Source of the DNA: Bacteroidota bacterium
GTDB lineage: Bacteria; Bacteroidota; Bacteroidia; Bacteroidales; FEN-979
Direction: 5' to 3'
Assembly: GCA_026391835.1 (NCBI GenBank)
Contig: JAPLDF010000042.1
Location: 552-64,551, forward strand
Length of the DNA stretch: 64,000 nucleotides
Below the pieces are notes generated by a model, which was not told the origin of the DNA, searched no databases, and worked only from the letters and a program-made list of their open reading frames with translations. Made by a program: the position numbers and the translations under genes. Below are positions 1 through 18,600 of this stretch, in pieces. Each line of letters starts with the position of its first letter. Position 1 is the stretch's first letter.

Positions 1-3000
1 CCTGAAGTAGTCCAGAGGATCGACGTATAATTGTAAGCCATGGCTCCTGACACGGTATAGGCTGAACCTTTGCATACAGTGGCATCAAGCCCGGCATTCG
101 CTGTCGGACCAGGCATCACAGTGAGGATCATGTGATCTGTAGCGGCACCGCAAGGTGCGTTGCCCGTTGCAGTCAATGTAAGTGTTACATCGCCCGTGAA
201 TCCGGCTGCCGGGGTAAAAGTCGGCAACATGGTACCTGCATTCGCAAGGACTCCTGCCCCGGATGGGGTGAAGGTCCATAGTACTGTCGGAGCATTCTGT
301 TTGCTGGCACCGGTTATCGCATAGGCAATTCCTTCACAGATGCTGGCATCGGGTCCGGCATTGGCAACCGGGGCTGCTACAATGGTAAGCACCATGGTCC
401 GGGTAGTCCCGGCGCAAGGTGAATGCCCGGTAAGATTCAATGTCAGGGTAACGGTTCCTGCAAGTACATCAGCAGTTCCCGGCGTATAGATCGGGTTAAG
501 TATCCCGGGATTGCTGAAGGTGCCTGTTCCTGAAGTAGTCCAGTTAATTGCAGTATAGTTCAATGCAGTCACTCCGCCGAAGGGGTAGTCTGAGCCTTCG
601 CAGATCGAAGCAGGGGTTAAGGAACTTGCAACTACCGAAGACCAGATCGTCAATACCATATTGCTGGTAACATCCGGGCATGGTGTATTGGCGATTGATT
701 TCAGCGTCAGTGTGACACTGCCGTTGGCAATGTCGGTTGCGGTTGGCGTATAGGTCGGGTGGAGCGAAGTTGCATCAGGTGTGAACGTTCCGCCGGTGGG
801 TGAAGTCCACAACAAACTTGCATAATTGGTTGCAGTTGATTCACTTAATGTATATTCCGAAACATCACAAATCGAGGCATTCTGGCCGGCAAAGGCTGTC
901 GGGGACTTGACAATCGTCAACGTCATGGCACTTGAGTCACCAGGACATGGAATTCCGCAGCAACTTGAGCATTTAACATAGAGGACAACTGATCCATGGG
1001 TTATGTCTGATGCACCTGGCGTATATATAGGATGCAGCGCAGTCGGATCGCTGAAATAACCCGATCCGTTTGTTCCCCACATCATCGATCCGCAGTTGAG
1101 TGCGCTTGAACCATTTAAGGTGTAAGTCGAGCCCTGGCATATAGTGCCGGCGGCACCTGCTTCAACATCACATGGAGGATAGATTGTTACATCGGACATA
1201 TCCTTGATTGTATCACATACACCGTTGTATATGCCCCAGGAGAAGGTATAAGTTCCGGCACTGAGGTTTGTTACCAGGGTTGTCGGACTGGATGGTGATG
1301 CAATTATCGGGGTTGTGCCGCCTGCCGGTATTGAAACCAGCTGCCAATAACCGTTTCCATAGATCGGAATGTTTCCGGTAAGGGTTGCGGAAACTGTCGT
1401 GGCTGACAAACACAATTTCTGATCATTTCCTGCAAAAGGAGATGACGGGCTATGATAATTCGTCACAGTTATATCAGCGTGATCCGTACAGGTAATGGAA
1501 CCAAAGGTGGTAGTGATGGTATACCTGAAAACATATGGGGTGGTGCTGGTGGTAAGCCCGGCAACAGAGGCCATCGGTGAATTTGAAGGTCCCATGGTAA
1601 CTGCAGGTGATCCGGCAGGTTTTGAAACAAGTGTCCAGTTGCCCGTGCTGCCGGCAGGAGGCCAGTTCCCGGTAAGGAAGGTCATATATTGATTACAGAG
1701 TAGCTGGTTGACGCCCGGATCGGCAGTGACGGCCTGGACGATATTATAGAATATGGTGTCGTTGGTACAGCATGGTACCGGGGCGGCATTGTCGCATATC
1801 CCTATGATGACACGGTCGGTTCCTGTATATCCGGAAGTTGGTGTGTAAACAAAGGTACTTCCGCTCAGCCAGCTGATGGTTCCATGTGCCGGGTTTGAAA
1901 CCGGAGTCTGGTTCACATGAAGCGGCAACCCTTCAGGTGAATAATCACCATTGAGCAGCACATCAACAGGGAAGTTGGTGGAATTTTTACAAACATAGAC
2001 ATTCCTTTCACTATAGGTAACCGGGCAACATGCCCCGACTTCACATTTTGCGGGTGCCGAAACAAGCGGATCACAGGGTGAACCATTTTGGGTGATCACA
2101 CAATGGTACCATGTCGAGCCAAGGACATTCATCGTTGGTGTAGTATAGCTTGTATTGCTGGCACCTGTAATATCGGAATAAGATCCTGCATTGCCTGTTG
2201 AACTCTGCTGCCACTGGTATGAAAGGGTTCCTGTACCACCACTTGCTGAAACGATCATCGTATGCGTGGTTCCGCGGCAAATTGCTGCCCCTGCAGGTTG
2301 TGTGCTGATGATGGCACTTTGTTTGAATTCAAGGATAACCTGGTCAGATACATCGCTGCACGTCCCGAGTCCCTTGCCTGTCAATGTAAGCGTTACAAAG
2401 CCGGTCTGTCCGGCAGCAGGTGTGTAGGTCGGGCTCAGCGTGGTGGCATTTGTCAGCGTGCCGGGGCCCGGAGCTGTCCACAGGATGGAGGCAACATTGG
2501 TTGCTGTGGCACCAGTGATGGTGAAGGGTTTGCTTTCGCAGGTCACACCACCTGATGGTGCACCAATACCTGCATCAATGATTGGTCGCGGCGTAATGGT
2601 CAAAACCATAACATCAAAAGCACCGGAACAGGGTGAATTTCCGGTTACGGTCATGGTCAGGTTTACAGGTCCGCTTTCAGCCGGAGCAGGCGCATAGGTC
2701 GGGGTCAGCGTAGTTGCATTGGTCAAAGTACCCAGGCCATTGTGTGTCCATAAAATGGAAGTGTAATTATAGGCAATCGCTCCTGAAATGGTATGGGAGG
2801 TCGTCTGGCATGTTTCACCGTCAGGACCTGCGTTGACGATCGGACCTGGAACGATGGTCAGAACCATCTGATCGCTGGCGTTGCCACAGGGAGTATTCCC
2901 GGTTGCTGTAATTGTCAGGGTAACCGGTCCTGTTTCGTTCAAGCCAAAGGTGTAGGTCGGGGTCAACCCTGTTGCATTTGTCAGGTGGCCGGTTCCGTTG

Positions 3001-6000
3001 TGTGTCCAAAGCAGGGCACTGTAATTGGAAGCTGTGGCTCCGCTGACTGTATAAGATCCTGACACTGAACACATATTGCCATCAACGCCTGCGTTTACGA
3101 CAGGAGACGGGAGGATAGTGAGACGCATTGTACTGGCTGCTGCTGCGCATGGGCTTGTGCCTGTCGCTGTAAGCGTCAGGTCGGCGTGACCAAGTGCAAT
3201 ATCCGAAATACCCGGGGTATAGATTGGGTTCAGGCTTTGATTGTTGTTAAAGTACCCGTCTCCGGAGGTGGTCCAGAGGAGTGTTGTATAGTTGGTAGCT
3301 GTTGCAGAGATAAGCAGGTAAGTTGAAGTCTGGCAGATGGTGGCATTTCCGCCAGACACAGCCGTGGCGGCCGGTACGATGGTGATGACCATTGCATCGG
3401 TGGCCGGTGAACACAACGATCCGCCTGCAGGAGTTGCAGTCAGCGTAAGTGTCACACTCGATTCACCAACTCCGAATGTATAGGTTGGGGAAATCGTATT
3501 GGCATTTGTGAGAACACCGGATCCCAATCCCTTTGACCAGGAGAGTGTAGTGGCATAAGTGGCTGTTGCACCTGTAACAGTATAAGATAAGGCAGAAGCA
3601 CACCTGCTTACATCCGGACCGGCATTTGCAACCGGCTGGCGCTGGATGGCGAGTGTCATGGATGCGCTGGTGTTTGCACACGGGCTGTTGGCAGTGACAT
3701 TCAGTGTGAGTGTCACCGTGCCGGCAGCAATATCGGCCGGGCTGGGGGTGTAAACCGGGTGCAGGTTACCTGCATTGTTGAAAGCACCGGTTCCGCTGGT
3801 CGACCAGAGGAGGCTGGCGTAATTGGTTGCCGAAGAACCGCTCAGTGTATAGTTTACGGCTGTTTCACACATGGTGGCATCTGTTCCTGCAGAGGCTGTG
3901 GCAGCGGGAACAATGGTGATAACCATGGCATCAATTGCTGCGCTGCACTGGGATCCTCCCGCCGGGCTGGCAGTAAGGGTAAGCGTGACACTCGTTTCAC
4001 CCGCTCCGAATGTATAGGTTGGGGAAATTGTACTGGCATTTGTGAGAATACCGGATCCCAATCCCTTAGACCAGGACAATGTGGAGGCATAGGTCGAGGT
4101 TGCACCCGTTACCGTGTACGAGAGTGCCGAAGCGCACCGCGTAACATCGGGACCTGCATTTGCAACAGGCTGGTGCTGGATGGTGAGTATCATGGAGGCA
4201 CTTGTGTTTGCACACGGGCTGTTGGCTGTGACATTCAAGGTGAGTGTCACCGTACCTGCAGCAATATCCGCAGGGCTTGGGGTGTAGACCGGGTGTAAGG
4301 TCGCCGCATTGTTGAATGCACCTGTTCCGCTCGTCGACCAGAGAATACTTGCATAATTGGTCGCTGATGATCCACTCAGGGTATAGCTTGCCGTGGTTTC
4401 GCAAATAGTGGCATTCGAACCGGCCGCGGCTGTCGGCGGGTTAATTACTGTTATGGTAGCACAACCGGAGATCATACTGTTGCATCCGACGCCGGTCTGG
4501 CTGATCAGTACCTGGTAATAGGTTGTTGTGGTCATCGAAGCGGCCGTATATGAACTTGTGGTTGCACCGCCAATGTTGTTGAAAGTGCTTCCGCAACCGG
4601 ATGTATTTGATTGCCACTGGTAACTGAATGCTCCTGTTCCGCCAGTAACGGTCACGCTCATGGTATGGCTTGAGCCGCTGCAGAGGGTTGTTCCCAAAGG
4701 TTGAACTGAAATACCCGGATCATCCACGACAATCACCTGTGCACAAGTGGTATAGAGCGTGGCACAAGCCGGATTTGTCACGGAGATCACGCACCTGTAG
4801 TACCTGGTACCAGAGGGCAGCGTGGTTGTTGTATAGGAGGCATTTGTAGCTCCTGTGATGTCGAAATAACCAAAGGCGCAATCAAGGGTGGAAACCTGCC
4901 ACTGGTAAGCCAGCGTGGCACTTCCGCCATCAATAGTGACGTTCATGGTATGTGTGCCGCCTGCGCACAATGTTGTTCCGGCAGGCTGGGCGGTGATCCG
5001 CGGAACACTTACGGTTACGCAACGCGACGTCAGCGGACCGCAACCGAGGCCGGTCTGGGTGACAAGTACCCTGTAAATCGTGGTCTGTGTCAGGTTTAAG
5101 GTAGTATAGTTCAGGTCAGTAGCACCCAAAATACTGGACCAGTTGGTGCCATTGCAGGGGCCTGTGCCTGTTTGCCATTGATATCCGTAGGAACCGATTC
5201 CGCCAGTTACCGTAACGGACATGGTGGTTGCCGTTCCGCTGCAGATGGTAATATCAGAGGGTTCTATTGTTATTACAGGATCAGGGATCACAGTAATCAT
5301 TACATTGTTGGAGATCGCCTGGCAGGTAACCGGGTCGCCACCGATGGTTGAGGTTGCTACACGATGATACCATGTGTTGGCGATGAGTGCGGCAACAGCC
5401 GTATAATTTGCCCCGGTTGCACCGCTGATGTTGGAGAATGTTGTACCATTTGGACTTGACTGCCATTGGTAGGTAATTGTTCCATCGCCTGCACCTGCAG
5501 AAACGCTGGTCAAAGTTGCAGGAATTCCACCTGTACAGATCGTCTGATCGCCAGCTATGGAACCAGGGGTTACATTGTTGACTAAAACTCTCAGGATATT
5601 CGAGGTTGCCGAACATATAACAGGGTCGCCTCCGATGGTCGAAGTGGTAATCCGCTGGTACCATGTATCTGCAGTCAAAACACCCGGATCAAAGGTTACA
5701 TTTGTTGCACCTGAAATACTGGTAAACGATCCTGCAAGGCCGGTCGGGCTATCCTGCCACTGGTAGGTAAGGACTCCTTCACCCGAGGGTGCCGGTGAGT
5801 TGGTAAAGGCAGCCGGGTCGCCGCCGCTGCAGATCGTTTGAGCTGCGGCAATGGTTCCGCCTGTAACTGTGTTAACATTGATCTTGACGACACTTGTGAA
5901 ACCATCACAGTTCACACTGTTCAGGAATGACCTTGTCCTTCTGCGGAACCAGGTATCCACAGAAATCGGACCAGGCGCATAAGCTGCATTGGTTGCACCT

Positions 6001-9000
6001 GCAATAGTCCCAAATCCTGACCCAGGACCTGTGATGCTTGACTCCCACTGGAACGTGATGGTACCGTCGCCTGTCCCTGTAATATCATTTGTAAAGGGCG
6101 CTGGAGTTTGTGTGGCACAGATTGTTTGCGCCGCAGAGATCGCCCCGGGATCCAGGTTGTTTACCGTTACCCTGAGAATGTTGGTGATTTCGGAACATGG
6201 CTTGGTATTCAGGGTAGATGTCGTAATCCGCTGGTACCACGTATCGGCGGTAAGTGCAAGCGCTGTATAGGTAGCATTTGTCGCACCGGTGATGCTTGTA
6301 AAAGAACCGAGGGATCCGGTCAGGCTTGACTGCCACTGGTAACTCAGGGCACCGTCGCTGACAGGGACCGTCAGATTTGTAAACTGTGTGGCGTTTGATC
6401 CGCTGCAGATCGTCTGGCTGCTTTGGATAACACCGGGCGTGAGATTGTTCACCCAGATATGGAGCGTATTGGTAGTGGCTGTACATGGAACCCCGGTGAG
6501 TGTGGAGGTTGCCACACGCCTGTACCATGCATCTGCAATGAGGGGCACTTCATCGTAGGTGGAATTGGTCGCACCCGCAATGATGCTAAAGCCGGAGGTT
6601 CCCGGTGATGTAACGCTTTTTTCCCACTGGTAGGTAATGATGCCGTCGCCGGTAGCATCAACGCTGGTGAATGCAAGAGGATCATCATTCACGCAAATCG
6701 TCTGATCTGTGGCAATACTGCCCGGCGTAAGGTTGTTGACCGTGACCAGGGCAGTTGTGGAAGTGGTTGCATCGCAACCATTTCCGGTAGCGGAAATGAT
6801 CACACGATAATAGGTATCTGCGATAATTGCGCCGGTATTGTATGAAGCACTGTTGGTTCCTACAGTGGTCCAACCGTTTATGCCGTCAATACTTTTCTGC
6901 CACTGATAGACAAGCACTGGTGTCCCGCCGCTGGCAACAACACTCATGGTAAAATTGCCTCCAGAGCAAATGATGTTGCCTACTGGCTGGGTGCTGATGA
7001 TCGGATCGGCAACCACGGTAACCGTTGCTACCGAAGTGATGAGGTCTGAACAGGTTGGATTAGAAACAGTGATCACACACTTATAATAGTTTGTTGTTGA
7101 CAGTGCGGCTGTGGTATAGGTCGGGCTGTTTGCCCCGGTTCCTCCAACCACATTGGCATAAATTCCGCCAAATGTGGTACACTCCTGCCACTGGTAAGTA
7201 TAAGTCGCAGTGCCACCATCAGATGTTACTGTTGTAGAAAGGGTTGCCGTACCCCCGTTGCAGATGGATGCACTGGTTGGATTTGTAACAATATGAGGAA
7301 TATACACAGTAACACAACCTGACGTCAGTGAGTTGCAGGCAACGCCGTCCTGGCTTATGAGCACGTGGTACGAAGTCGTTGCCTGGACTGAAGTTGCAGT
7401 ATAGGAACTTTGAGTTGCCCCAAAAATATTGGACCATGTTGGTGATGCACACGTCCCTGTACTATTTTGCCATTGATAGGAAAGAGTCCCGGTCCCGCCG
7501 TCAACAACGACCGACATGGTATGGCTTCCGTTGTAGCAAATGGTCGCGCCAACCGGTGGTGTTGTAATTGTCGGATCGCCGGCAACCGTGACCTTTATGC
7601 AACGTGAAACAACCGGTCCGCAACCGACGCCGGTCTGGCTCACAATACACTGGTAATAATAGGTATTCGGTGTGTTCAGTTGTCCTGTCGAATAGCTGTT
7701 GGTGGTAGCTCCCAAGATGTTGCTCCAGGTACCGGTGCAGTCACCGTTGCTTTGCTGCCACTGGTAACTGAATGCACCCAGTCCGCCTGTTACGGTGACA
7801 CTGAGGGATGCCGTGCCACCCTGGCACATGCTCACATCACTTGACTGAAGTGTAAAGGCCGGATCGGCAAGAACCTGCACCAGAGCCGAATTGGTAATCA
7901 TGTCGGCGCAATATGGTGACGTAACAGAAATGACACACTTGTAGTAGTGATTTCCTGTTGTAAGCGCATCGGTAATATAAGTTGTTGAATTTCCACCTGT
8001 TCCGGTTGTGACATCTGCCCATGGGCCTCCTGCGGCTGATGCTTCCTGCCACTGATAACTAAGTGTGGCACCTCCCGCATCGGCCGAAATGGTCATCGAA
8101 TGGGTTCCGCCTTCACATAAGGTGGTTCCAGTCGGATGGGTCAGAATCCTGGGAACTGTAAGTGTTATGCAATCAGATGTCAGTGAATTGCAACCGTTTC
8201 CTGTCTGACTTACAAGCACGTGATATGAGGTCGTCAAACCCGGGGAGGCAGAATAGGTGCTTGCATTGGCACCCGAGATCGGAACCCAGAATGGAGCTGC
8301 ACAGGTTCCGGCACTCCGCTCCCACTGGTAACTGAACGTACCGGTCCCTCCGGTTACACTTACTGAGAGAACCGTCGGAACACCAAGGCATGAAACACCG
8401 CCAACAGGCTGTACCGAAATACCGGGATCCGGATTTACAATAACATGGGCTGCCGGGGTGACAACAGAACCGCATTCCACGGTACAATGATACCAGATAT
8501 CTGATGTCAGCGCAGGTGTTGTGTAGCTTGCATTTGTGGCACCTGTAATCGCATGCCAGTCGTAAGGCGAATCAGTTGTGGAATAATCCCATTGATAGGT
8601 ATAAACCCCTGATCCTCCTGATGCTGATACGCTTACAGTCGCTGTACCGCCATTGCAGATGGTAACATCGTTCGGGCCGGCGACGACAACATCAGAATAC
8701 TTGGTAATTTGCATGATATCGGTTTTGTCGCAGGTAGGATCACCGGTTGAAACGGTCCATTTGAAAATATATGTACCGATGGCCCCCAGGTTGGTGACAA
8801 GGGTATTGGATTGATTTGGATTTGCAATGATTGCCACAGCAGGTGTTATCCCTACCTGGCTCCATGTCCCGGTGCCGGTAATTGGCGTTGTTGCATGCAT
8901 GGTTGCAGAAACCTGGGTGTTGCAAAGGATCTGGTTCGGCCCTGCGATGGCATTGGAGGGGATCGAACTGATCGTGACTTCGGTAATGTCTTCACTCGAC

Positions 9001-12000
9001 GGACATGCCGGGTTCACTGTGATGGTCCATTTGAATTGATAAATTCCGACAACCATATTGGTGACATTGGTCACCGGTGAGGTCGGGTTGAGAATGAATG
9101 CGGTGGATGGTCCCCCCGGCAACTGTGTCCACAACCCCGTTTCACCTGCTGCCAGTGCATTACCGGTAAGCGTTACGGGCTGGAACAAGCATATCGTGGC
9201 ATCACCGCCCGCATTGGCGGTGGAGGGTGTTGCATAAATGGTGATCTGCATATCATCAAAAGCGCTGCAGGTTCCCAGCTGGGAAGTCCATCTGAAGGTA
9301 TAAACACCGGGAATAAGCCCGGTTACGGTTGTATTGTAGAGAGAAGGATCGGTTATCACGGCAAGGTTGGGCGTAGTACCGATCTGTGACCAGGTACCTG
9401 TACCAAACGAGAGTTGATTTCCTGCAAGCGTCGCCGAATTTGCTGAATTGCACCATAGCTGGTCGTCTCCTGCAAGCGGGGCGGTAGGTTCCTCATGCGT
9501 TGTTAACGTAACCACAGATGTGCACGAATCGCAAACACCGTTTTTCACGGTCCACCTGAAAACAGAAGATGTTTCAAGGGCCAGGCCGGTGACCTGCGTG
9601 GTATTCAGGTTTGGAGATACAATGGTGGCAGGCGGTCCGCTTACCTGTGTCCATGTACCAACGCCGTGTGCCGCTAGAGTCGCAGCCATATTGGTCATCG
9701 TACCGCAAATATCCTGCGCAGGGCCTGCATCGCATGGCGTTGTTACCCCATAATTTTCAATCCGTACTTCATCAGCATTGCTGCAGCCTCCGTCGGCGAC
9801 TGTCCATCTGAAAATATAAAGCTGGCCACCAACAGCGCCGTTGAATACGGCATTGTAAGCGTGATTGTCCGGTGAAAAGCTTCCGCCTCCGCCAGTTGGG
9901 TAAAGTTTCGTCCATGTACCAGTCCCGATCAGCGGTTGTGTGGCAGCCAAGATGAGACTTGACAGGTTGCATACAAACTGGTCAGGCCCTGCCTGTGCGG
10001 GCGAAGGCTGCCCGGAAATGATCACCTGCATGCTGTCAACTGAATTGGGGCATAGCCCGCCGCCAATGGTGTAGAGAAATGTATAGGTACCTGTGAGCAA
10101 CCCTGAAACAGTTGCTGAATTCGGCGACGTTGTCAAAATGGTTGCATTGTACGGGGGAAGCGGATTCAGTTTCGATTGCGACCAGACACCATTGCTGCCG
10201 ATGTTCCCGACAAGGTTGGTCTGGGTTACCGCACATAAAAGCTGGTCAGCTCCTGCATTGGCCGATTCACCTACATTGATGGTTACCAGGTCTTCGCTGA
10301 TGGGGCAATAGGGTCCTCCGGCAGTGGTCCATTTAAAAATATAGGTTCCACTGATCAGGTTGCTTACGGTGGCAGCCGGATCGGTGATACTCGAGAATGT
10401 CGGCGTATTGGGGCCGCTCACCATCGACCAGAAAGCTGTGCCAACTGCTGCCGGTGTTGCAGCCATCAGGACAGATAATGGGTTGGGGCCGCAAATCAGC
10501 TGATCGGGACCGGCATAGGCTGGTGTTGATGGAACTGAAATATAAAACTTGACCGAATCCACGGAAGTTCCGCAAGCACCGCTGCTGATAATCCAGTTGA
10601 ACTGGTATACGCCATTGGTAAGATTTGTTACCAGTGAATTATATAAAGCTGTATCAACGATCACAGCACCACCCGGGCCGACGGTTTGAATCCATCTGCC
10701 GGTTTCTCCTGCCGCCGGTGCATTGCCGGCGAGGTTCAGCGTTGTACCGCAAATAGTCCTGTCGGCTCCTGCATTGGAAGGAGTCACATGGTTGGCGATG
10801 GTGATCATCACAGTATCCCTGGTAGATCCGCAACCTGGATAGGATATCTGCCATTCGAACGTATAGGTGCCATTCGCCAGCCCGCTTGCCTGCGTGAGAT
10901 AAGCCGTCGGATCCGCAAAAGTAACAGTACCGGGTCCGGTAAGTTTTGTCCAGAGCCCGTTGTACGGATTCGGATCATTCCCGTGAAGCGTGACAACCGA
11001 AGTTCCCAGTGCATTGCACTGATCAGGCCCGGCATTGGCTATCAGCGGGTCTACCCCGCCGGTCGTGGTTAGCAGGCAGATATCTGCCGATGAGCTGCAG
11101 GCATTGCTGATCGTCCATGTAAATGTGTATACCTGGCCGGCTGCAAGATTTGACAAAACAGCATTTGGCGCATGACTGTCGGGTAAAAAGGTAGGGCCTG
11201 CGGGAGATACCGTCCACGTTCCAACTTCATTCAATGCAGGAACATTTCCAAGCATCCTGTACGGGAAATAGTTGCAGATGGTTGAATCCGGACCTGCTGC
11301 AGCAGTACTGGGCGCTCCATTGGCTACAATGATACGGGTATCCGACTGGAACGTCGGACACGTCGGACCACCAGACACCAGCCATCGCAAACGGTATGGC
11401 CTGCCCGGGATGAGTCCTGAAATGGGAGAACTGGGATTATGAATATCTCCGAACACAGGGACACTGGGTCCGCTCACAAAAGTCCATGTACCTGTTCCAT
11501 GGCTGATGAAGTTCCCGGCCATTGAAGTGGAGGTAATATTACAGCCAAGGATTTGCGGGGTGCCGGAATTGGCATGGGTGGGTGAATGGGAAGTGGTAAC
11601 TGAAACTTCCTGGGTTACGGTGGTACAGGCATTGCCCGACCCCGGAACAACCCTGAAGCGGATGACATAGGTGCCATCACCGCTCAGGTGATAGATCAGC
11701 TGAGGTGAGGTGGTGGCGGCAAACCACCCTGTGGGGATGGTGGGGTAGTACCAGTTGGTCGGCCCGCTTACGATGCTCCACTCGAGGCTGCCGCCCCCGG
11801 TAAGTGAATAGGTGATCGTGGCAATGGAATCATCACAAGGTAAAACCGGCGTCGCATCAAGCGATATGGTTGGGTTTACATTGTAGGTAACGGAGGTCGA
11901 AGCTGATGAACTGCATCCCGTGAGGCTGTTGACGATCGTATAGCTGAATGTATAGCTGCCGGTAGGATTTGTAATCGTAACACCTGTGATAGGGTTTGTA

Positions 12001-13091
12001 GGATTTGCAATACTCACTCCCGGGCGACCGGATGTCTGAACCCAGGTGCCGGTTTCATTTGCATAAAGCGGGTTGTTGCCGGTAAGGACAAAATTTAGAC
12101 GTGTATCGCAAAAAACCTGGGCACCGCCTGCGCTGGCACCGGTAACACCACCGAGTGCATGGCTGACGGTAATCGTGTTGGTCGCTGTGCCATTGGCACA
12201 TGGGCCCGACACGGTCCATTGAACTGTGTAGGTACCTTCCACCAGGTTTGAAATAGAGGAGCTGTTTGAATTCGCATTTCCGAAAACAGGCGTGGATGGT
12301 CCGCTGATGAAGGTCCAGTGCCCGCTTTGCCCGCTAATTCCGCATCCCCCGAATGATCCGTTGAGTGTGGCGGATGTGGTGGCAGTATAACAACCTCCGA
12401 CAATGATCGGGGTACCAGCCGTAACCGGGCTGACCCCGCCGATGTTGGTGACGGTCATGTCATCAAAATCATAGCAACTGTTGGTTCCTGTAATGGTCCA
12501 TCGCAGTGTCGTTATACCGCAGGCATTCTGGGCGAGGGTAACCGTACTGTTCCTGGATGTTGGTGAATTGATTGTAACTCCATGGTTGGTGCCGACAACC
12601 TGCCATAAACCGCTTTCCCCGGCACCGGGAGCATTCCCGTTGAGGGTGAGAATATTAACCCCGGGGCATGAAATCAGGTCAGTTCCGGCAACCGAGGTCG
12701 TAATAGGCTTCACCTTCACCCACACGGAGTCATAAACCAGAGAACCATCCAGGCACTTGGCACTGAAATAAAACCAGTAAACCTGGTTCGAAACATAGCC
12801 GGTAACATTGGTATTAAAACTATATGGCGATACAATGTTCACCGACGGACCGCTTTTTTGACTCCAATGGATATCCCCGCCTCCGGCCTGGTAAAGTCCG
12901 GATGAGTTCCCGTGCAAAAGCATCGGCTGGTTTACGCATATGGAATCGGGTATGCCTGCATTCACAGTACAATTCTGCGAACGAACTTCATTGTTGAACA
13001 AGGGCATCATGAATGCCCAAATCGCCATGGTAAGGATTATCTGAAACTTACGTGTTTCAATAATGCCAGATAATTGTAATAATTGTTTCAT
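1..13091 (-). CDS. Giant repetitive secreted cell-surface (adhesin-like) protein; N-terminal >=4,363 codons, C-terminus lies beyond window start
   Basis: Not in the supplied ORF track because it has no stop in the window. Manual translation of the minus frame (codon first bases at positions = 2 mod 3) from ATG 13091 gives MKQLLQLSGIIETRKFQIILTMAIWAFMMPLFNNEVRSQNCTVNAGIPDSICVNQP... Spot translations of 13091-12100, 9479-9421 (PLAGDDQLWCNSANSATLAG) and 4439-1 (...NAGPDASICEGIAYAITGA...NYTSILWTTSG) show no stop. Every listed minus-strand ORF >=60 aa in 1-13091 is in one of the other two frames. The N-terminus looks like a signal peptide and is followed by Cys-paired beta-sandwich-type modules. 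Confidence 0.85.
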   Translation of the reverse strand, partial: MKQLLQLSGIIETRKFQIILTMAIWAFMMPLFNNEVRSQNCTVNAGIPDSICVNQPMLLHGNSSGLYQAGGGDIHWSQKSGPSVNIVSPYSFNTNVTGYVSNQVYWFYFSAKCLDGSLVYDSVWVKVKPITTSVAGTDLISCPGVNILTLNGNAPGAGESGLWQVVGTNHGVTINSPTSRNSTVTLAQNACGITTLRWTITGTNSCYDFDDMTVTNIGGVSPVTAGTPIIVGGCYTATTSATLNGSFGGCGISGQSGHWTFISGPSTPVFGNANSNSSSISNLVEGTYTVQWTVSGPCANGTATNTITVSHALGGVTGASAGGAQVFCDTRLNFVLTGNNPLYANETGTWVQTSGRPGVSIANPTNPITGVTITNPTGSYTFSYTIVNSLTGCSSSASTSVTYNVNPTISLDATPVLPCDDSIATITYSLTGGGSLEWSIVSGPTNWYYPTIPTGWFAATTSPQLIYHLSGDGTYVIRFRVVPGSGNACTTVTQEVSVTTSHSPTHANSGTPQILGCNITSTSMAGNFISHGTGTWTFVSGPSVPVFGDIHNPSSPISGLIPGRPYRLRWLVSGGPTCPTFQSDTRIIVANGAPSTAAAGPDSTICNYFPYRMLGNVPALNEVGTWTVSPAGPTFLPDSHAPNAVLSNLAAGQVYTFTWTISNACSSSADICLLTTTGGVDPLIANAGPDQCNALGTSVVTLHGNDPNPYNGLWTKLTGPGTVTFADPTAYLTQASGLANGTYTFEWQISYPGCGSTRDTVMITIANHVTPSNAGADRTICGTTLNLAGNAPAAGETGRWIQTVGPGGAVIVDTALYNSLVTNLTNGVYQFNWIISSGACGTSVDSVKFYISVPSTPAYAGPDQLICGPNPLSVLMAATPAAVGTAFWSMVSGPNTPTFSSITDPAATVSNLISGTYIFKWTTAGGPYCPISEDLVTINVGESANAGADQLLCAVTQTNLVGNIGSNGVWSQSKLNPLPPYNATILTTSPNSATVSGLLTGTYTFLYTIGGGLCPNSVDSMQVIISGQPSPAQAGPDQFVCNLSSLILAATQPLIGTGTWTKLYPTGGGGSFSPDNHAYNAVFNGAVGGQLYIFRWTVADGGCSNADEVRIENYGVTTPCDAGPAQDICGTMTNMAATLAAHGVGTWTQVSGPPATIVSPNLNTTQVTGLALETSSVFRWTVKNGVCDSCTSVVTLTTHEEPTAPLAGDDQLWCNSANSATLAGNQLSFGTGTWSQIGTTPNLAVITDPSLYNTTVTGLIPGVYTFRWTSQLGTCSAFDDMQITIYATPSTANAGGDATICLFQPVTLTGNALAAGETGLWTQLPGGPSTAFILNPTSPVTNVTNMVVGIYQFKWTITVNPACPSSEDITEVTISSIPSNAIAGPNQILCNTQVSATMHATTPITGTGTWSQVGITPAVAIIANPNQSNTLVTNLGAIGTYIFKWTVSTGDPTCDKTDIMQITKYSDVVVAGPNDVTICNGGTATVSVSASGGSGVYTYQWDYSTTDSPYDWHAITGATNASYTTPALTSDIWYHCTVECGSVVTPAAHVIVNPDPGISVQPVGGVSCLGVPTVLSVSVTGGTGTFSYQWERSAGTCAAPFWVPISGANASTYSASPGLTTSYHVLVSQTGNGCNSLTSDCITLTVPRILTHPTGTTLCEGGTHSMTISADAGGATLSYQWQEASAAGGPWADVTTGTGGNSTTYITDALTTGNHYYKCVISVTSPYCADMITNSALVQVLADPAFTLQSSDVSMCQGGTASLSVTVTGGLGAFSYQWQQSNGDCTGTWSNILGATTNSYSTGQLNTPNTYYYQCIVSQTGVGCGPVVSRCIKVTVAGDPTITTPPVGATICYNGSHTMSVVVDGGTGTLSYQWQNSTGTCASPTWSNIFGATQSSYTATSVQATTSYHVLISQDGVACNSLTSGCVTVYIPHIVTNPTSASICNGGTATLSTTVTSDGGTATYTYQWQECTTFGGIYANVVGGTGANSPTYTTAALSTTNYYKCVITVSNPTCSDLITSVATVTVVADPIISTQPVGNIICSGGNFTMSVVASGGTPVLVYQWQKSIDGINGWTTVGTNSASYNTGAIIADTYYRVIISATGNGCDATTSTTALVTVNNLTPGSIATDQTICVNDDPLAFTSVDATGDGIITYQWEKSVTSPGTSGFSIIAGATNSTYDEVPLIADAWYRRVATSTLTGVPCTATTNTLHIWVNNLTPGVIQSSQTICSGSNATQFTNLTVPVSDGALSYQWQSSLTGSLGSFTSITGATNATYTALALTADTWYQRITTSTLNTKPCSEITNILRVTVNNLDPGAISAAQTICATQTPAPFTNDITGTGDGTITFQWESSITGPGSGFGTIAGATNAAYAPGPISVDTWFRRRTRSFLNSVNCDGFTSVVKINVNTVTGGTIAAAQTICSGGDPAAFTNSPAPSGEGVLTYQWQDSPTGLAGSFTSISGATNVTFDPGVLTADTWYQRITTSTIGGDPVICSATSNILRVLVNNVTPGSIAGDQTICTGGIPATLTSVSAGAGDGTITYQWQSSPNGTTFSNISGATGANYTAVAALIANTWYHRVATSTIGGDPVTCQAISNNVMITVIPDPVITIEPSDITICSGTATTMSVTVTGGIGSYGYQWQTGTGPCNGTNWSSILGATDLNYTTLNLTQTTIYRVLVTQTGLGCGPLTSRCVTVSVPRITAQPAGTTLCAGGTHTMNVTIDGGSATLAYQWQVSTLDCAFGYFDITGATNASYTTTTLPSGTRYYRCVISVTNPACATLYTTCAQVIVVDDPGISVQPLGTTLCSGSSHTMSVTVTGGTGAFSYQWQSNTSGCGSTFNNIGGATTSSYTAASMTTTTYYQVLISQTGVGCNSMISGCATITVINPPTAAAGSNATICETTASYTLSGSSATNYASILWSTSGTGAFNNAATLHPVYTPSPADIAAGTVTLTLNVTANSPCANTSASMILTIQHQPVANAGPDVTRCASALSYTVTGATSTYASTLSWSKGLGSGILTNASTISPTYTFGAGETSVTLTLTASPAGGSQCSAAIDAMVITIVPAATASAGTDATMCETAVNYTLSGSSATNYASLLWSTSGTGAFNNAGNLHPVYTPSPADIAAGTVTLTLNVTANSPCANTSASMTLAIQRQPVANAGPDVSRCASALSYTVTGATATYATTLSWSKGLGSGVLTNANTISPTYTFGVGESSVTLTLTATPAGGSLCSPATDAMVITIVPAATAVSGGNATICQTSTYLLISATATNYTTLLWTTSGDGYFNNNQSLNPIYTPGISDIALGHADLTLTATGTSPCAAAASTMRLTILPSPVVNAGVDGNMCSVSGSYTVSGATASNYSALLWTHNGTGHLTNATGLTPTYTFGLNETGPVTLTITATGNTPCGNASDQMVLTIVPGPIVNAGPDGETCQTTSHTISGAIAYNYTSILWTHNGLGTLTNATTLTPTYAPAPAESGPVNLTMTVTGNSPCSGAFDVMVLTITPRPIIDAGIGAPSGGVTCESKPFTITGATATNVASILWTAPGPGTLTNATTLSPTYTPAAGQTGFVTLTLTGKGLGTCSDVSDQVILEFKQSAIISTQPAGAAICRGTTHTMIVSASGGTGTLSYQWQQSSTGNAGSYSDITGASNTSYTTPTMNVLGSTWYHCVITQNGSPCDPLVSAPAKCEVGACCPVTYSERNVYVCKNSTNFPVDVLLNGDYSPEGLPLHVNQTPVSNPAHGTISWLSGSTFVYTPTSGYTGTDRVIIGICDNAAPVPCCTNDTIFYNIVQAVTADPGVNQLLCNQYMTFLTGNWPPAGSTGNWTLVSKPAGSPAVTMGPSNSPMASVAGLTTSTTPYVFRYTITTTFGSITCTDHADITVTNYHSPSSPFAGNDQKLCLSATTVSATLTGNIPIYGNGYWQLVSIPAGGTTPIIASPSSPTTLVTNLSAGTYTFSWGIYNGVCDTIKDMSDVTIYPPCDVEAGAAGTICQGSTYTLNGSSALNCGSMMWGTNGSGYFSDPTALHPIYTPGASDITHGSVVLYVKCSSCCGIPCPGDSSAMTLTIVKSPTAFAGQNASICDVSEYTLSESTATNYASLLWTSPTGGTFTPDATSLHPTYTPTATDIANGSVTLTLKSIANTPCPDVTSNMVLTIWSSVVASSLTPASICEGSDYPFGGVTALNYTAINWTTSGTGTFSNPGILNPIYTPGTADVLAGTVTLTLNLTGHSPCAGTTRTMVLTIVAAPVANAGPDASICEGIAYAITGASKQNAPTVLWTFTPSGAGVLANAGTMLPTFTPAAGFTGDVTLTLTATGNAPCGAATDHMILTVMPGPTANAGLDATVCKGSAYTVSGAMAYNYTSILWTTS
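3363..4430 (-). repeat. Two near-identical 534-bp tandem units (each = two 89-aa modules) inside the giant CDS
   Basis: Anchor strings recur at exactly +534 bp: tccgaatgtataggttggggaaat at 3471 and 4005; gtcgaccagag at 3799 and 4333; conserved Cys codons at 3333, 3867 and 4401. The translated units are about 90% identical (…SAGTDATMCETAVNYTLSGSSATNYASLLWSTSGTGAFNN… versus …AGSNATICETTASYTLSGSSATNYASILWSTSGTGAFNN…). Confidence 0.8.
4440..8650 (-). repeat. About 15 tandem Ig-like coding modules (period about 285 bp), each with a (Y/F)QW(Q/E) motif
   Basis: The plus-strand signature ccactggta / ccattgata (reverse complement encodes YQW) recurs near 4613, 4897, 5170, 5460, 5753, 6040, 6330, 6615, 6897, 7185, 7470, 7755, 8045, 8320 and 8590, spaced 270-293 bp. 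Confidence 0.7.
8650..13000 (-). repeat. Coding modules of about 270-290 bp with the motif AGxDQxxC...L.G/AN...G.W (roughly 15 copies, PKD/Ig-like)
   Basis: Translated examples: NAGIPDSICVNQPMLLHGNSSG..IHWSQKSGPS, VAGTDLISCPGVNILTLNGNAPGAGESGLWQVVG, PLAGDDQLWCNSANSATLAGN. The copy number is estimated from periodicity and was not counted exactly. Confidence 0.5.
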
Positions 13092-13941
13092 ATTGCCTGG
13101 ATTTGAAAAGTGATTGAAAATCGGAGGGATGTTATTTGTATCGATTGTTTCTGAATTATTCGTTTTACGACAGAACACCTGTCAGGTTACGCTATGGTAG
13201 ATTTAAAACACAACAATTTCATCTTAGATATAAGTTTATGAATTAGTTGAAAATTTTTGTATCAATTCAACATCTGGTTTAAAAATTAAAGCAGATGGAT
13301 ATGTCGGCATGCAATTAATGATGAACACGACTTAAATCGTCTTTCGTATACGCCTAACGCACAGACATTTAAAAATATTAAAGCAACCAGAATTGTAAAT
13401 TTAAGCCGCTAAGTTAATATAAAAACCGCTATTAAAACATAAGAGCCTAACAAAATCGAACATATGTGCGATTATTTCACATTAAAACCCGTTTTCAACA
13501 GGATCGACCTGGGAAAAAGTTCAGCTATTGAAAAAAATACGATTTTAACATGTTCGCATTTAGGCATATACCGTATTTTATTGGAGGTTGTTTTCACTTA
13601 TCATGCTTTCCTGCACACATGTTGCAGAATTGTTGCCCTTTTTTAATTTTAGCCATCCCCCGGTCAGCGTATTTTGCCGTTTTTGGTGTTAAAAATTTCA
13701 CCTTCTGCATGTTTTCATTCACCAGTTCCGGTTTTGGCATTCACCCCTGTATCCCCGACTTCCCAATTTTCCCCACTTTTCAGAGCACCGCTTTTACAGG
13801 ATTTGGAGACAAATCATAAAAAATGTTTGCCATTTTGACTAATTTTACCATAACATTTTTTTCAAAAAAAATTAATTCTGCAATAATTCAGACGAAATCC
13901 TTGCCGGGGAAGGAGAGGCCATGGTCTGCAATAAATTTTCA

Positions 13942-13949
13942 TACTTTTG
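13942..13949 (+). promoter_or_regulatory. Candidate Bacteroidota -7 box TACTTTTG upstream of the DUF1566 gene
   Basis: Exact match to the TAnnTTTG consensus, 44 nt upstream of ATG 13993. Confidence 0.4.
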
Positions 13950-13992
13950 CACCCGGGTACATAACTGAAATCAACACGATAAAAATTACACC

Positions 13993-14598
13993 ATGATGAA
14001 TAAATCTATTGGATCTCTCCTGGTTTTCTTCCTTTGTTTCCATTCCGTTTATAAAATTCATGCGCAGGATAAAAGCCATGAAACCATATCGGTGAATACT
14101 GCAGCAGGAAAACATGTACCCGGTGATAATTTTGGTGGCGGAAAGATTTTCTGGCTGGATGAAACAGGACAGCATGGCCTGGTCGCTGCACCAACAGATC
14201 AAAGCGCCGGTGGTATTGCCTGGAATCCCGGGAAAGCCATTGTATCCGGGGCCAGTGAGGATGTTCTTTATTCCGGTCAAAAAAACAGCGAGAAAATAGT
14301 TGCCGTTCAGGGCAATACCTTGCAATATGCTGCAAAACTCTGCCTTGACTTTTCAACCACGGTAAATAATGTTGTCTACAGCGATTGGTACCTGCCTTCC
14401 AGGTTTGAACTGAACCTGCTTTACCAGCAAAAAACTGCTGTTGGCGGATTTAACCAAACCAGCGGGATTTACTGGAGTTCTACTGAAAGTGCCTTAACAC
14501 CCGGAACCATGGCCTGGGAGCAGGAGTTCAAATTCGGCTCACAACATGAAGATGATAAAGACCTGCCCGATCAGGTCAGGTGCATCAGGAAGTTCTGA
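13993..14598 (+). CDS. Secreted DUF1566 (Lcl C-terminal-like, lectin-fold) domain protein
   Basis: Signal peptide MMNKSIGSLLVFFLCFHSVYKIHAQ. Motifs YSDWYLPSRFELNLLY, IYWSSTE and VRCIRKF are typical of DUF1566. Confidence 0.7.
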   Translation: MMNKSIGSLLVFFLCFHSVYKIHAQDKSHETISVNTAAGKHVPGDNFGGGKIFWLDETGQHGLVAAPTDQSAGGIAWNPGKAIVSGASEDVLYSGQKNSEKIVAVQGNTLQYAAKLCLDFSTTVNNVVYSDWYLPSRFELNLLYQQKTAVGGFNQTSGIYWSSTESALTPGTMAWEQEFKFGSQHEDDKDLPDQVRCIRKF

Positions 14599-14615
14599 AC
14601 ATCCGGCAGCCCTGC

Positions 14616-15317
14616 CTAATCGGCAACACACCTTACCGAAATCCCCGTGCTCTTATAGTTCAGGTACCTGCCAATTCCCTCCCTGGCATTGAAAAGTGTG
14701 CGGATCCAGACATCGGTTTCATTTTCCGGTGTTGAAGACCAGAAATAACCTATTACCTGGATTTTATCGAAATAATAACTGCCGGTGGCATAGCTATAGC
14801 CTCCTGGCAATGCAGTAAATCCGCTCTGGTTGGTTGCACCGAAGTTGGGCAGCTTGAAATGGGTATCACCAGGCTCTTTCATCCGCTTGCCTGCTGACAC
14901 ATCACCCCCGAGAAAAGCAACGAGGGTATCCCATTCTTCATCGGCAGGTACATGCCATCCTGCCGGACAGATGCCCTTTGCCTTTGGGGTTCCTGTATAT
15001 TGCATTGCCTCGTTCCATTGATACAATCCGCCGTAAACATTGCAATTTTCCTCAAGGTTCCCGTAGCAGAACTTCTCGATGATATTGTTGTTGGCTTGCT
15101 TATGGTCCCCCCTGATACGGGTTCCCGTGTTGAGATTTTCCTTTAGCCAGCATTGGCTGCCGATCTGAACCGTTCCATAAATCTTCCCGTCACGGGAATC
15201 TTTCAGGCTATCGCCGCAAACAAACTTTGGCTGCCCGGGATTGTTACCGGATTGCTGGGTAAAAGCAGGCAAAACCATTGCTATGAACAACATCAGAATC
15301 AGAAAACATGTTTTCAT
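14616..15317 (-). CDS. Secreted Fibrobacter succinogenes major paralogous (FISUMP, TIGR02145-type) domain protein
   Basis: Signal peptide MKTCFLILMLFIAMVLPAFTQ. Motifs YGTVQIGSQCWLKENL, GGLYQWNEAM, CPAGWHVPADEEWDTL, NQSGFTALPGG, FWSST and SVRCVAD. Confidence 0.8.
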   Translation of the reverse strand: MKTCFLILMLFIAMVLPAFTQQSGNNPGQPKFVCGDSLKDSRDGKIYGTVQIGSQCWLKENLNTGTRIRGDHKQANNNIIEKFCYGNLEENCNVYGGLYQWNEAMQYTGTPKAKGICPAGWHVPADEEWDTLVAFLGGDVSAGKRMKEPGDTHFKLPNFGATNQSGFTALPGGYSYATGSYYFDKIQVIGYFWSSTPENETDVWIRTLFNAREGIGRYLNYKSTGISVRCVAD

Positions 15318-15560
15318 AAACCATTTTTTTTGATTAAACCGGGAATCGCTTCATCTTTCTATCTCAATATTAAGAATATACCCTCTTTTATGAAGTTATA
15401 ATTGAGAGCCTTATAAAATTCCATAGTACAAATTTAAATAATATTAATTCCTGATATCCATTATAAATCTAAAATTATTTCAGGTTGCTGTTAATCGAAT
15501 CCTGCCATAAAAATCATTTCAACGAACCATGCGGGGATATTGTCTCATGGATATCATCGG

Positions 15561-15598
15561 ATAAAATATAAAAACCCCTGTTCATTGCTGAACAGGGG
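15561..15598 (-). terminator. Rho-independent terminator downstream of the 1,761-aa gene
   Basis: Perfect 10-bp stem cccctgttca (15575-15584) / tgaacagggg (15589-15598) with loop ttgc. On the minus strand it is followed by TTTTTATATTTT. It lies 55 nt after the stop codon. Confidence 0.75.
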
Positions 15599-15652
15599 CG
15601 GGGAACAGGATGATCGGATTAGTGAAAAATGAGCAGTATGAGTAATCCCGGG

Positions 15653-18600
15653 TTAATTTTTCAGACAACGTACCGGATTACCGGTCGATTTGAGGTTATA
15701 ATAACTTCCAAGGGAGGCAACTGACAGTGAAACACTCCGGAACACAGGCCCGTTGGGCGATGCGTAATCTGTGGATGTATGAAAGTAGCCGGTCTGGTAA
15801 ATGTTCGTATAAAAGATGCTGCCACCATAGTTGTAGCTGCTTCCGCCGGGTAATGCGGTGAATCCGTATTCGTTGGTTGCACTTGTATTGGGGGCCCTGA
15901 AATGACTGGTTCCGGCCTCCTTCAGTTTTCCACCTGCAACAGAAATTCCGCCGGCATAGGTAGCAAGGGTGATAAACTCAGCTTCGGTTGGGATGTGCCA
16001 GCCCGACGGACAGATCCCCTGTGTTCCGGGAGTGGTAACATATTGCATCATTTCATTCCACTGGTACAAACCTCCGTACATGTCGCAATTGATTAAAGAA
16101 TCATTGTAACAGTATTTTTCAACAACTGCGTTGTTGGTTTGTGCTACAGTGATGTTCAGTTTGGTTCCAAGGTTAATATTCTCCCTCAGCCAGCATTGTG
16201 TCCCGATTTGAACGGTATTGTAGGTCAGTCCGCCGTAAGAAACCGTTGGCAGACCGGTACAGGCAGTCCCTGTTGTATAAACAACCATGGCAAGCCTGTT
16301 GGAAGAAGCGGGGTTATTTGACAAACATGACACACTGTAGTTCGAGGTCACCACACAGGTTACTTTGTCATAATTTGCTGGTGTATAAGTATAGGTGCTG
16401 CTGTTTGTTCCGACGGCAACATTGTTCACTTTCCACTGGTAAACAGGCGAGGTGCCGCCGTTTTCGACAGTTGCAGTGAAGGTGACCTGCGTTCCCGGCA
16501 TAACTGCATATAATGAAGCTACAATCGATGCCTTTACAGGTACAAGGGGGTTGACAGTCATGTTTATTACGTTGGAGGTTGCAGGATTGCCGGTTGCACA
16601 GGGGGCGTTGGAAGTAGCAACACATGAGATTGCATGGTTATTGAGCGGAACATAGGTATAGGTGGCATTGGTTGCCCCGATTATGATATTTCCGTTCAAT
16701 TTCCACTGATAGGTGGGTGCAGTTCCGCCATTGACGAGGGTTAAGCTGAACGTAACCGCGCTGCCCGTGCAGGAAGGGTTGGCTGAAGCGGTGATGGTGA
16801 GGCTGACCGGTAATAGCGGGTTAACTGTCATGGCAACTACATTGGAAAAAACTGAACTGTTTGAAGGACAGAGTGCATTTGATGCCAGTTCGCATTTGAC
16901 CGCATCACTGTTGGCAGGGATATAGGTATAAGCGGCATCGGTTGCTCCCGTTACAATTGTTCCGTTCACAAACCATTGATATGCCGGTGATGTACCTCCG
17001 TTGCCAATGGTCGTCGTGAATGTAACGCTGGTGCCTGCACAAACATTATTGGCCGATGGCGTTACTGTAATCGTGACAGGTAATATGGGATTTACTGTAA
17101 TTGTGTCTGCAATTGAGGTAGCAGGGCTTCCAATGGCACATGGCGCATTTGAAGTCAGGACGCAGAGTACTTTATCTCCATTAACTGGCACATAGGAATA
17201 AACCGGGTTGTTTTCTCCAACATTTGCACCATTTATCTTCCACTGGTAATCAGGAAATGCACCTCCATCTATGGGTGTGGCAGTGAATTCAACCAGGGTT
17301 CCTGCACAAACAGCACCTGCAGGAACTGCAGCAACAGTTACAGATGTATTGCCGGGACTTGGGTTCACCATCATGGTATCGGCATTGGATGAAGCAGGAT
17401 TGTTGCTCACATAGGGCAGGCTTGATGTCATCTCACAATGAATCACATCACCGTTTTGCGGGGCATAAATGTATGTTGCACTGTTGGATCCAACACTGTT
17501 GCCATTCACTTTCCACTGGAACAATGGGGAGTTTCCTCCGTTCACCGGGGTTGCAGTTACTGTTACTAGGGCACCCTGGCACATTGCATCTTCAGGGTTA
17601 CATATAATACTTACACCGGCTGAAAGCGCAGGGTTGACGATGATGGTAACCGTATTTGTCGGCAAAGATCCGCCACATGTTCCTGTGGCATTTTGTAGTT
17701 GCCTGTAATAGGTGGTTTCTGTCAGCGGACCAGCCTGGTAATTGAGTGAAGTTGCACCCGGAATATCACTGAAAGTGATGTTGTCCGTTGAAAACTGCAT
17801 CTGGTAAACCGGTGATGTTCCGTTTGACGGCGGTACCCCGATCAATTCGGCCGGGGTCATGCCCACAACAATCGTCTGATCTCCGCTGATCGAGCCAGCC
17901 ACGAGCCGCGGGGTAACCGTCATGGATTCTTCGTTCGAAAATGCAGGATTACCGCTAGTGCATTGTATATTCGAGGTGAGCGTGCACGTAACCTTGTCAT
18001 TGTTTGAAGGTACATAGGTAAAATGGTCGCTGCTGGTACCGGCATTGCTGCCATTCACCTTCCACTGGTAGGCTGGGATGGTGCCGCCATTGACAGGGAT
18101 CGCGATAAACGTAACTGATGTTCCCTGGCAAACCTGGTTTTCAGATGCGGTAATCGTAGCACTTACAGGAAGTAGAGGATTGATACCTAAAGCAATGACA
18201 TTCGAGATACCTGGATTTCCTGTTGGGCAGGCAACACTGGAAGTGAGCGTACATTTGATTTGTACAGGATTCACTGCTACGAAGGAGTATGTTGCATTGG
18301 TAGCACCCGGAATATCTTCGTCGTTCGTCATCCACTGGTATGCCGGTTGGGTACCACCGTTTACCGGGATAGCCGTGAACGTAACATTTGTTCCGGCACA
18401 AACAGGATTCACGGGTGTAGAAATCGAAACACTCACCGGCAGCAATGGGTTCACTGTCATGGTTACCGGATTCGAAACAACCGGATTGGCGCTCGGACAG
18501 GTAACATTTGCTGTCAATTCGCATTTTACGAGGTCACCGGAAACAGGGATATAGGAATAGGTTGCATTGGTCTCGCCTGGTTTGTCAAGGCCGTTCACTT

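Follow-up and report, generated by a model that had tools for sequence, protein, structure and literature searches.

What kind of gene occupies the left edge of this contig, where more than 13 kb of sequence appears in a list of open reading frames (ORFs) with short frames only? The window analysed here is a stretch of 64,000 nucleotides (nt), positions 552-64551 of contig C29 (JAPLDF010000042.1), which belongs to an 86-contig, 5.35-Mb assembly (G000) that is 96.7% complete. The original prediction placed in its first 13,091 nt a single frame on the minus strand, coding for a giant secreted surface protein of modular build that the window edge cuts short; our analysis supports that reading. 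We consider it quite probable that the gene encodes one very large cell-surface fibril or adhesin, a cargo of the type IX secretion system (T9SS) in an uncultured freshwater Bacteroidales bacterium.

Direct translation gives a minus strand that is open from ATG 13091 to base 3, a run of 4,363 codons with 0 stops. If about 5% of random codons are stops, the probability that chance alone leaves so long a run open is near e^-220. A listing that allows open ends returns 3..13178 on the minus strand (4,392 amino acids (aa), 3′ end open), beginning at a GTG. We favour ATG 13091 over GTG 13178 as the start because two related proteins, P0004 and P0026, begin at the same position, with a matching MKQ/MKK. 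Leftward extension through 551 further bases, to base 1 of C29, meets no stop and lengthens the product to 4,547 aa, bearing out the claim that the protein exceeds 4,363 aa and is incomplete; a public protein collection already includes the identical 4,547-aa product (P0001). Every module found by hidden Markov models (HMMs) in 1-13091 sits in one frame, and, as predicted, no frameshift is required to maintain the repeats. The frame had also been described as missing from the ORF track. It is indeed unlisted there, because the lister omits end-running ORFs by default; its absence is a listing rule and has no biological meaning as an annotation gap.

The giant product is a string of about 70 β-sandwich modules, immunoglobulin (Ig)- or PKD-like, mapped with HMMs iterated on the protein itself. 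Their order from the amino terminus is a leader, 15 K319L-like PKD modules, 15 YQWQ modules, 8 modules of 89 aa, 1 YQWQ module, a Big_9/cadherin-like module, 2 PKD modules and a further 89-aa array, which has at least 24 modules once the probable continuation off-window is counted:

3..13091, minus strand: giant gene, in-window part (aa 1-4363), with 0 stops and hundreds of giant Bacteroidota homologues.
12975..13091, minus strand: leader, a probable Sec signal (aa 1-39), with a basic stretch and the hydrophobic core ILTMAIWAFMMPLF; conserved in P0004 and P0026.
8691..12968, minus strand: Array I (aa 42-1467), 15 K319L-like PKD modules (AGxDQxxC...W...C; Pfam PF22352 and the module map).
4452..8678, minus strand: Array II (aa 1472-2880), 15 YQWQ Ig-like modules (71-103 bits per module with their own HMM; Pfam Ig_3).
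2316..4433, minus strand: Array III (aa 2887-3592), 8 modules of 89 aa (xANAGxDATIC...LWTTSGTGxF...PxYTP...VTLTLT...PC; HMM map).
2043..2300, minus strand: single YQWQ Ig-like module (aa 3598-3683; own HMM, 99.4 bits).
1728..2042, minus strand: Big_9/cadherin-like module (aa 3684-3788; Pfam Big_9 over cut-off at E 2.2e-9, Cadherin_5 and Cadherin_4 weak).
1167..1727, minus strand: two K319L-like PKD modules (aa 3789-3975; HMM map).
3..1166, minus strand: Array IV, 89-aa modules (aa 3976-4363 within the window, and as far as aa 4547 where C29 ends; HMM map).

This census agrees with the one first read by eye, with 15+2 AGxDQxxC...W modules, 15+1 YQWQ modules, one Big_9/cadherin-like segment and the 89-aa modules all recovered in HMM searches. 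The K319L-like family (PF22352, K319L-like_PKD) scores 113.2 bits against a Pfam gathering score of 27, with 5 stretches reported, and an HMM trained on the copies in the window detects all 17; a divergent Ig-like insert lies within Array I at aa 404-505. The YQWQ modules of Array II fall into two subtypes, one represented by five 'NNLTPG...DTWY' modules at aa 2117-2600, and match chain S of PDB entry 9ncf ('Immunoglobulin-like domain protein', 460 aa) at E 1.2e-16. NCBIfam ZirU_fam reaches 77 bits on the single YQWQ module at aa 3598-3683, below its cut-off of 100, and was not used. Array IV holds 6.5 copies of the 89-aa module before C29 breaks. An SprB repeat in the window part scores 20 bits, under the Pfam cut-off of 28. 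Threonine makes up 16.7% of the giant protein, and its 187 cysteines correspond to roughly two per module. At the nucleotide level, self-BLAST finds a two-module tandem duplication of 534 nt in Array III (window 3364-4414; 80.8% identity over 521 nt); Tandem Repeats Finder reports no repeats, because its longest period is 500 nt.

The 89-aa module occurs at window positions 3-4433 and again at 10138-16841 of a second contig, C85. Its consensus is xANAGxDATIC..YT..GATA.NY.S.LWTT.G.G.F.NA..L.P.YTP...D...G.VTLTLT.T..SPC..A.D.M.LTI. All copies fall under every Pfam cut-off (PKD_4 gives just 10-15 bits), other proteins carrying 18-25 copies likewise have no Pfam match, and a profile of 23 copies finds no match among PDB sequences. 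The original prediction had treated the AGxDQxxC...W and 89-aa modules as separate classes, a division that profile-profile comparison removes: hhalign joins the two at a probability of 94.7% (E 5.6e-8, 83 of 88 columns) with a common Cys-Trp-Cys frame, and an iterated HMM seeded by either class gathers both. AlphaFold2, run on a paralogue alignment, predicts a seven-strand β-sandwich with a predicted local distance difference test score of 95.6. Foldseek ranks the PKD domain 2yrl (KIAA1837) first in the PDB for this model and 7kpn sixth, and the model superimposes on the base of grappling hook protein A (GhpA; 9fly) with a template modelling score of 0.76 and a root mean square deviation of 2.4 Å. 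On the strength of the profile comparison and the predicted fold, the 89-aa module belongs with the K319L-like modules of the same protein, as a divergent relative that has the PKD fold. Its profile matches 7,117 representative proteins at E<=0.001 and 2,053 at E<=1e-30, and a single protein can carry up to 66 copies, yet distribution across the phylum is patchy (9 of 201 sampled genomes at E<=1e-8). The module is a candidate to receive a domain model of its own within the PKD clan.

Where does the gene end? Searching with the last 450 residues of the C29 frame (tblastn) returns strong matches on C29 and C85 only. C85 (16841 bases) carries a minus-strand frame that enters from the contig tip and stops at 10138-10140, encoding about 17 modules of 89 aa, an SprB repeat (PF13573, 41.8 bits), PKD-like and Ig_7 modules and, at the end, a type A sorting domain. 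Self-BLAST of C85 shows repeats at offsets of 1,056, 1,593 and 2,662 nt with 83-88% identity. The complete relative P0026 (5,619 aa) serves as a guide across the gap. It is collinear with C29 (aa 1-1874 with P0026 1-1900, and 3166-4541 with 2778-4154), while C85 residues 606-1677 align with P0026 3585-4661 and 1566-2149 with 5026-5619, including a near-identical C-terminal domain (CTD). We read C29 and C85 as a single gene because P0026 is collinear with both and the CTD is nearly identical. Judged from these alignments, the two contigs very probably hold one gene of at least 4,547 + 2,229 codons (about 6,780 aa), with a further stretch in the middle that the assembly lacks, and the in-window frame very probably forms the front two-thirds of a surface protein of roughly 6,800 residues or longer.

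The sorting signal had been expected off-window, with a type B CTD given as an example. It does lie off-window, on the probable continuation, and its type differs: the C-terminal 75 residues encoded on C85 match PF18962 (Por_Secre_tail) at 48.3 bits (cut-off 27) and TIGR04183 at 52.5 bits (cut-off 23), both type A models. No match to the type B models (PF13585/CHU_C, TIGR04131) was found in the C-terminal 750 aa. A type B cargo was accordingly rejected: type A models match instead, and PorP/SprF is not adjacent. We infer that the type A CTD belongs to the window gene, an assignment that depends on the C29-C85 join.

The same genome encodes the export machinery. SprA (TIGR04189) scores 2,597 bits on C80, and two full-length PorU paralogues (NF033707; 1,325 and 1,244 bits) stand in tandem at C41:78927-85680, adjoined by a PorP/SprF gene at C41:77265-78131. 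PorP/SprF (PF11751) has six matches in the genome, on C74, C41, C5, C12 and C19, and none on C29 or C85. With SprA, PorU and at least 150 Por_Secre_tail matches (type A cargo) in the genome, the type A CTD makes the predicted export of this protein by the T9SS well supported. Along the established T9SS pathway, the leader would take the giant protein through Sec, the CTD would be recognised at the SprA translocon, and PorU would remove it, after which the protein would be attached to the outer-membrane surface or released. By analogy with GhpA, at about 4 nm per module, the extended chain would project roughly 300 nm and would let the cell adhere to particles, polymers or other cells.

Several points weigh against this reading of a single, intact, adhesive protein. 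Its role in adhesion is suggested by domain types alone. The C29 start and the C85 end share no overlapping sequence, leaving the join indirect, and two exact-pattern metagenome scans (for a 32-mer close to where C29 starts, and for the C85 junction with a 0-13-nt gap) found no bridging contig in a collection from which records close to this genome may be missing. Near its tip, C85 also carries a 13-nt duplication that, if real, would cost the product about 2,100 residues and the CTD.

The lack of overlap would suit an alternative in which the giant frames of C29 and C85 are paralogous genes distinct from one another, each with its other end unseen, and several more giant genes with repeats do occur in the genome (with frames of 6,445, 5,245, 4,282, 4,211 and 3,855 aa). 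We nevertheless think this improbable. Of the 172 contig ends in the 86-contig, 96.7%-complete assembly, just two, the C29 start and the C85 end, carry open frames with the 89-aa module; a separate C85 gene would require two further contig ends that are unseen. The tblastn search with the C29 tail points to the same two contigs alone, and in P0026 the orthologues of both pieces, N- and C-terminal, form a single protein. The break in C29 is itself explained by a relative: slightly beyond the point where C29 stops, the contig of P0004 runs out among near-perfect copies of a two-module unit.

The duplication is a perfect tandem pair of the unit GCTGCTCTGGACA at C85 16534-16559 on the minus strand, in the probable 3′ part of the gene. 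The pair, located within a repeat some 280 nt (about 100 codons) from the C85 tip, shifts the frame. With one GCTGCTCTGGACA unit, the C85 frame runs uninterrupted through 2,229 codons until its stop. If both units are genuine, the gene could be a recently inactivated pseudogene or an on/off allele that varies in the population, with a stop about 70 codons past the duplication and loss of the T9SS sorting domain. In favour of a true 13-nt insertion, the paralogous repeat copy has a single unit at that site, and the 2,229-codon frame is recovered with one unit; a de Bruijn assembler, moreover, would write such a junction only if it were present in some reads. On the other side, the duplication sits near a contig end in a repeat, where assemblies are least reliable, and the 2,149 codons past it are perfectly open, with conserved module residues and the CTD kept. 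Any inactivation would therefore be very recent or confined to part of the population. The duplication is thus either an artefact of assembly or of a minority variant, or a very recent, possibly reversible inactivating event, and we hold loss of function to be possible though doubtful.

Close relatives show how such a gene changes. There are 538 relatives of 2,400-7,300 aa in Bacteroidota with the N-terminal array in common, named in their sources as PKD domain-containing proteins, gliding motility-associated C-terminal domain proteins or T9SS type A/B sorting domain proteins. Lake metagenome-assembled genomes (MAGs) labelled Bacteroidales or Bacteroidota are the source of relatives. P0004, from a Bacteroidales MAG, is a partial protein of 5,850 aa that is 82% identical over the first 700 aa. 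P0004 and P0026 are orthologues or close paralogues of the window protein: both share its leader, its type A CTD and a K15-Y-c-Y-Big_9-K2-c-...-Ig_7-CTD scaffold, where K is a K319L-like PKD module, Y a YQWQ module and c an 89-aa module. In full, the strings read K15 Y15 c8 Y K2 c7...c16 K here, K15 Y20 c10 Y K2 c14... in P0004 and K15 Y4 c4 Y K2 c9 K in P0026. The Y array thus ranges from 4 modules in P0026 through 15 in the window protein to 20 in P0004, and the first c array from 4 through 8 to 10; P0026 in addition has a block of 'TYTWT' PKD-like modules that the window protein is without. Such differences in module count among close relatives indicate that the arrays evolve by tandem duplication and loss, and the 534-nt two-module duplication (81%) is consistent with this expansion and contraction. 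Because of this turnover, draft assemblies all break within the gene. The same-genus orthologues in G023, G019 and G012 have open frames of 6,229, 6,445 and 5,797 aa, all running off contig ends; this holds for all four same-genus orthologues with a long open frame and for the window gene.

The surroundings of the gene contain further secreted proteins. Upstream of the giant gene lies a 900-nt spacer in which a promoter and terminator scan stays at chance level; Rfam finds no RNA family in window 1-15000. Beyond it, the upstream neighbours (window 13993-20938) are secreted lectin-like proteins:

Within 13993-20938: Lcl_C/DUF1566 protein, 201 aa.
Within 13993-20938: Fib_succ_major protein, 233 aa.
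Within 13993-20938: PKD_3/Ig_3/PKD protein, 1,761 aa, which ends in Fib_succ_major in place of a T9SS CTD.

Nothing suggests an operon with these neighbours. Past the stop, C85 continues with a 277-aa ORF, read from the opposite strand and weakly matching IPTL-CTERM, and with a 465-aa ORF that has no family match. C85 also has three further genes for cargo with a type A CTD, all downstream of where the giant gene ends (1123-3174, 3250-4119 and 4627-7098), one of them encoding a BNR/YCF48-like (PSII_BNR) β-propeller of 683 aa. Elsewhere in the genome are the several giant surface-protein genes whose five frame lengths were given above; they appear among the weak PorU and Por_Secre_tail matches, on C19 (~69131), C17 (~53298 and ~87733), C40 (~46439) and C33 (~30074).

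Taken as a whole, the gene is real and joins a well-populated, catalogued class, that of giant T9SS cargo with Ig/PKD repeats; its product is most likely a long adhesin or fibril of the cell surface. What is new here is minor: a type A CTD on a second contig, a frameshifting 13-nt duplication and an abundant PKD-fold module outside the domain libraries. Giant T9SS cargo is abundant in Bacteroidota and almost all of it is uncharacterised, with roles known for SprB and GhpA only. Genes of this kind are systematically lost or truncated, dropped from ORF tracks that leave open-ended frames unlisted and broken in the repeat arrays of draft MAGs, and the 89-aa module, present in about 7,100 representative proteins, is captured by no Pfam model and by no solved structure on sequence. 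Current understanding is unchanged by this gene; its value is for annotation and catalogue work.

Three known systems offer comparisons. The first is the K319L-like PKD domain (PF22352) of human KIAA0319L/AAVR (PDB 2yrl, 7kpn). The N-terminal modules of the window protein match it, and the 89-aa module has the same fold and Cys...Trp...Cys frame, but differs in falling under all Pfam cut-offs and in having no PDB sequence-profile match.

The second is SprB of Flavobacterium johnsoniae (6,497 aa), whose sorting domain is of type B and which has sprF downstream. The window protein resembles SprB in size class, Ig-like repeats, T9SS export and the SprB repeat itself; it differs in having just one such repeat over cut-off (on C85), a type A CTD and no adjacent sprF-like gene. 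Orthology with SprB was rejected on repeat content and on the absence of that adjacent gene.

The third is GhpA, the best PDB sequence match (phmmer, E 3.1e-79) and among the best by fold. GhpA, from Aureispira sp. CCB-QB1, is a heptameric, 5,898-aa T9SS substrate with about 52 Ig-like repeats and a 240-nm stalk, and its gene is followed downstream by those for GhpB/C, homologues of PorP/PorE (bioRxiv 10.1101/2024.01.29.577165; PDB 9flp, 9fly). Both are giant T9SS cargo built from Ig-like repeats, and GhpA 4635-5727 aligns with the K319L-like array, Array I matching residues 4635-5351. GhpA 2788-4451 aligns in marginal stretches only (independent E 2 to 490), and the hook module, residues 26-1402, has no significant stretch in the phmmer alignment. 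The K319L-like array is C-proximal in GhpA and N-terminal here, and GhpA has a hook module and downstream ghpB/C, whereas the window protein is without either and has a type A CTD; no PorP gene was found on C85. Orthology with GhpA was rejected, the similarity being confined to the PKD/Ig arrays, without the hook module and without downstream ghpB/C-like genes.

Short of orthology, the protein might still be a functional analogue of GhpA or SprB, forming a rigid multi-stranded 'grappling-hook' appendage or a gliding adhesin. Its size, Ig-like repeat build and T9SS export are common to both proteins (bioRxiv 10.1101/2024.01.29.577165), and to these can be added the rank of GhpA among PDB matches and folds and the single SprB repeat above cut-off on C85. 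We judge such an analogy unlikely all the same: the match to GhpA is limited to the PKD/Ig arrays and leaves the hook residues unaligned, and the K319L-like array stands at the other end of the chain. GhpA has PorP/PorE homologues encoded downstream and SprB a C-terminal T9SS sorting domain (bioRxiv 10.1101/2024.01.29.577165); here the six genomic PorP/SprF genes are all off C29 and C85, and the CTD is of type A. A long surface adhesin or fibril remains our preferred reading. Fainter still is the chance that the orthologue group might build a rigid, multi-stranded GhpA-like appendage with the 89-aa module, present here in at least 38 copies, as its stem unit; if true, this would carry grappling-hook-type organelles beyond predatory Saprospiria and into anaerobic lake Bacteroidales, with anchoring by a type A CTD.

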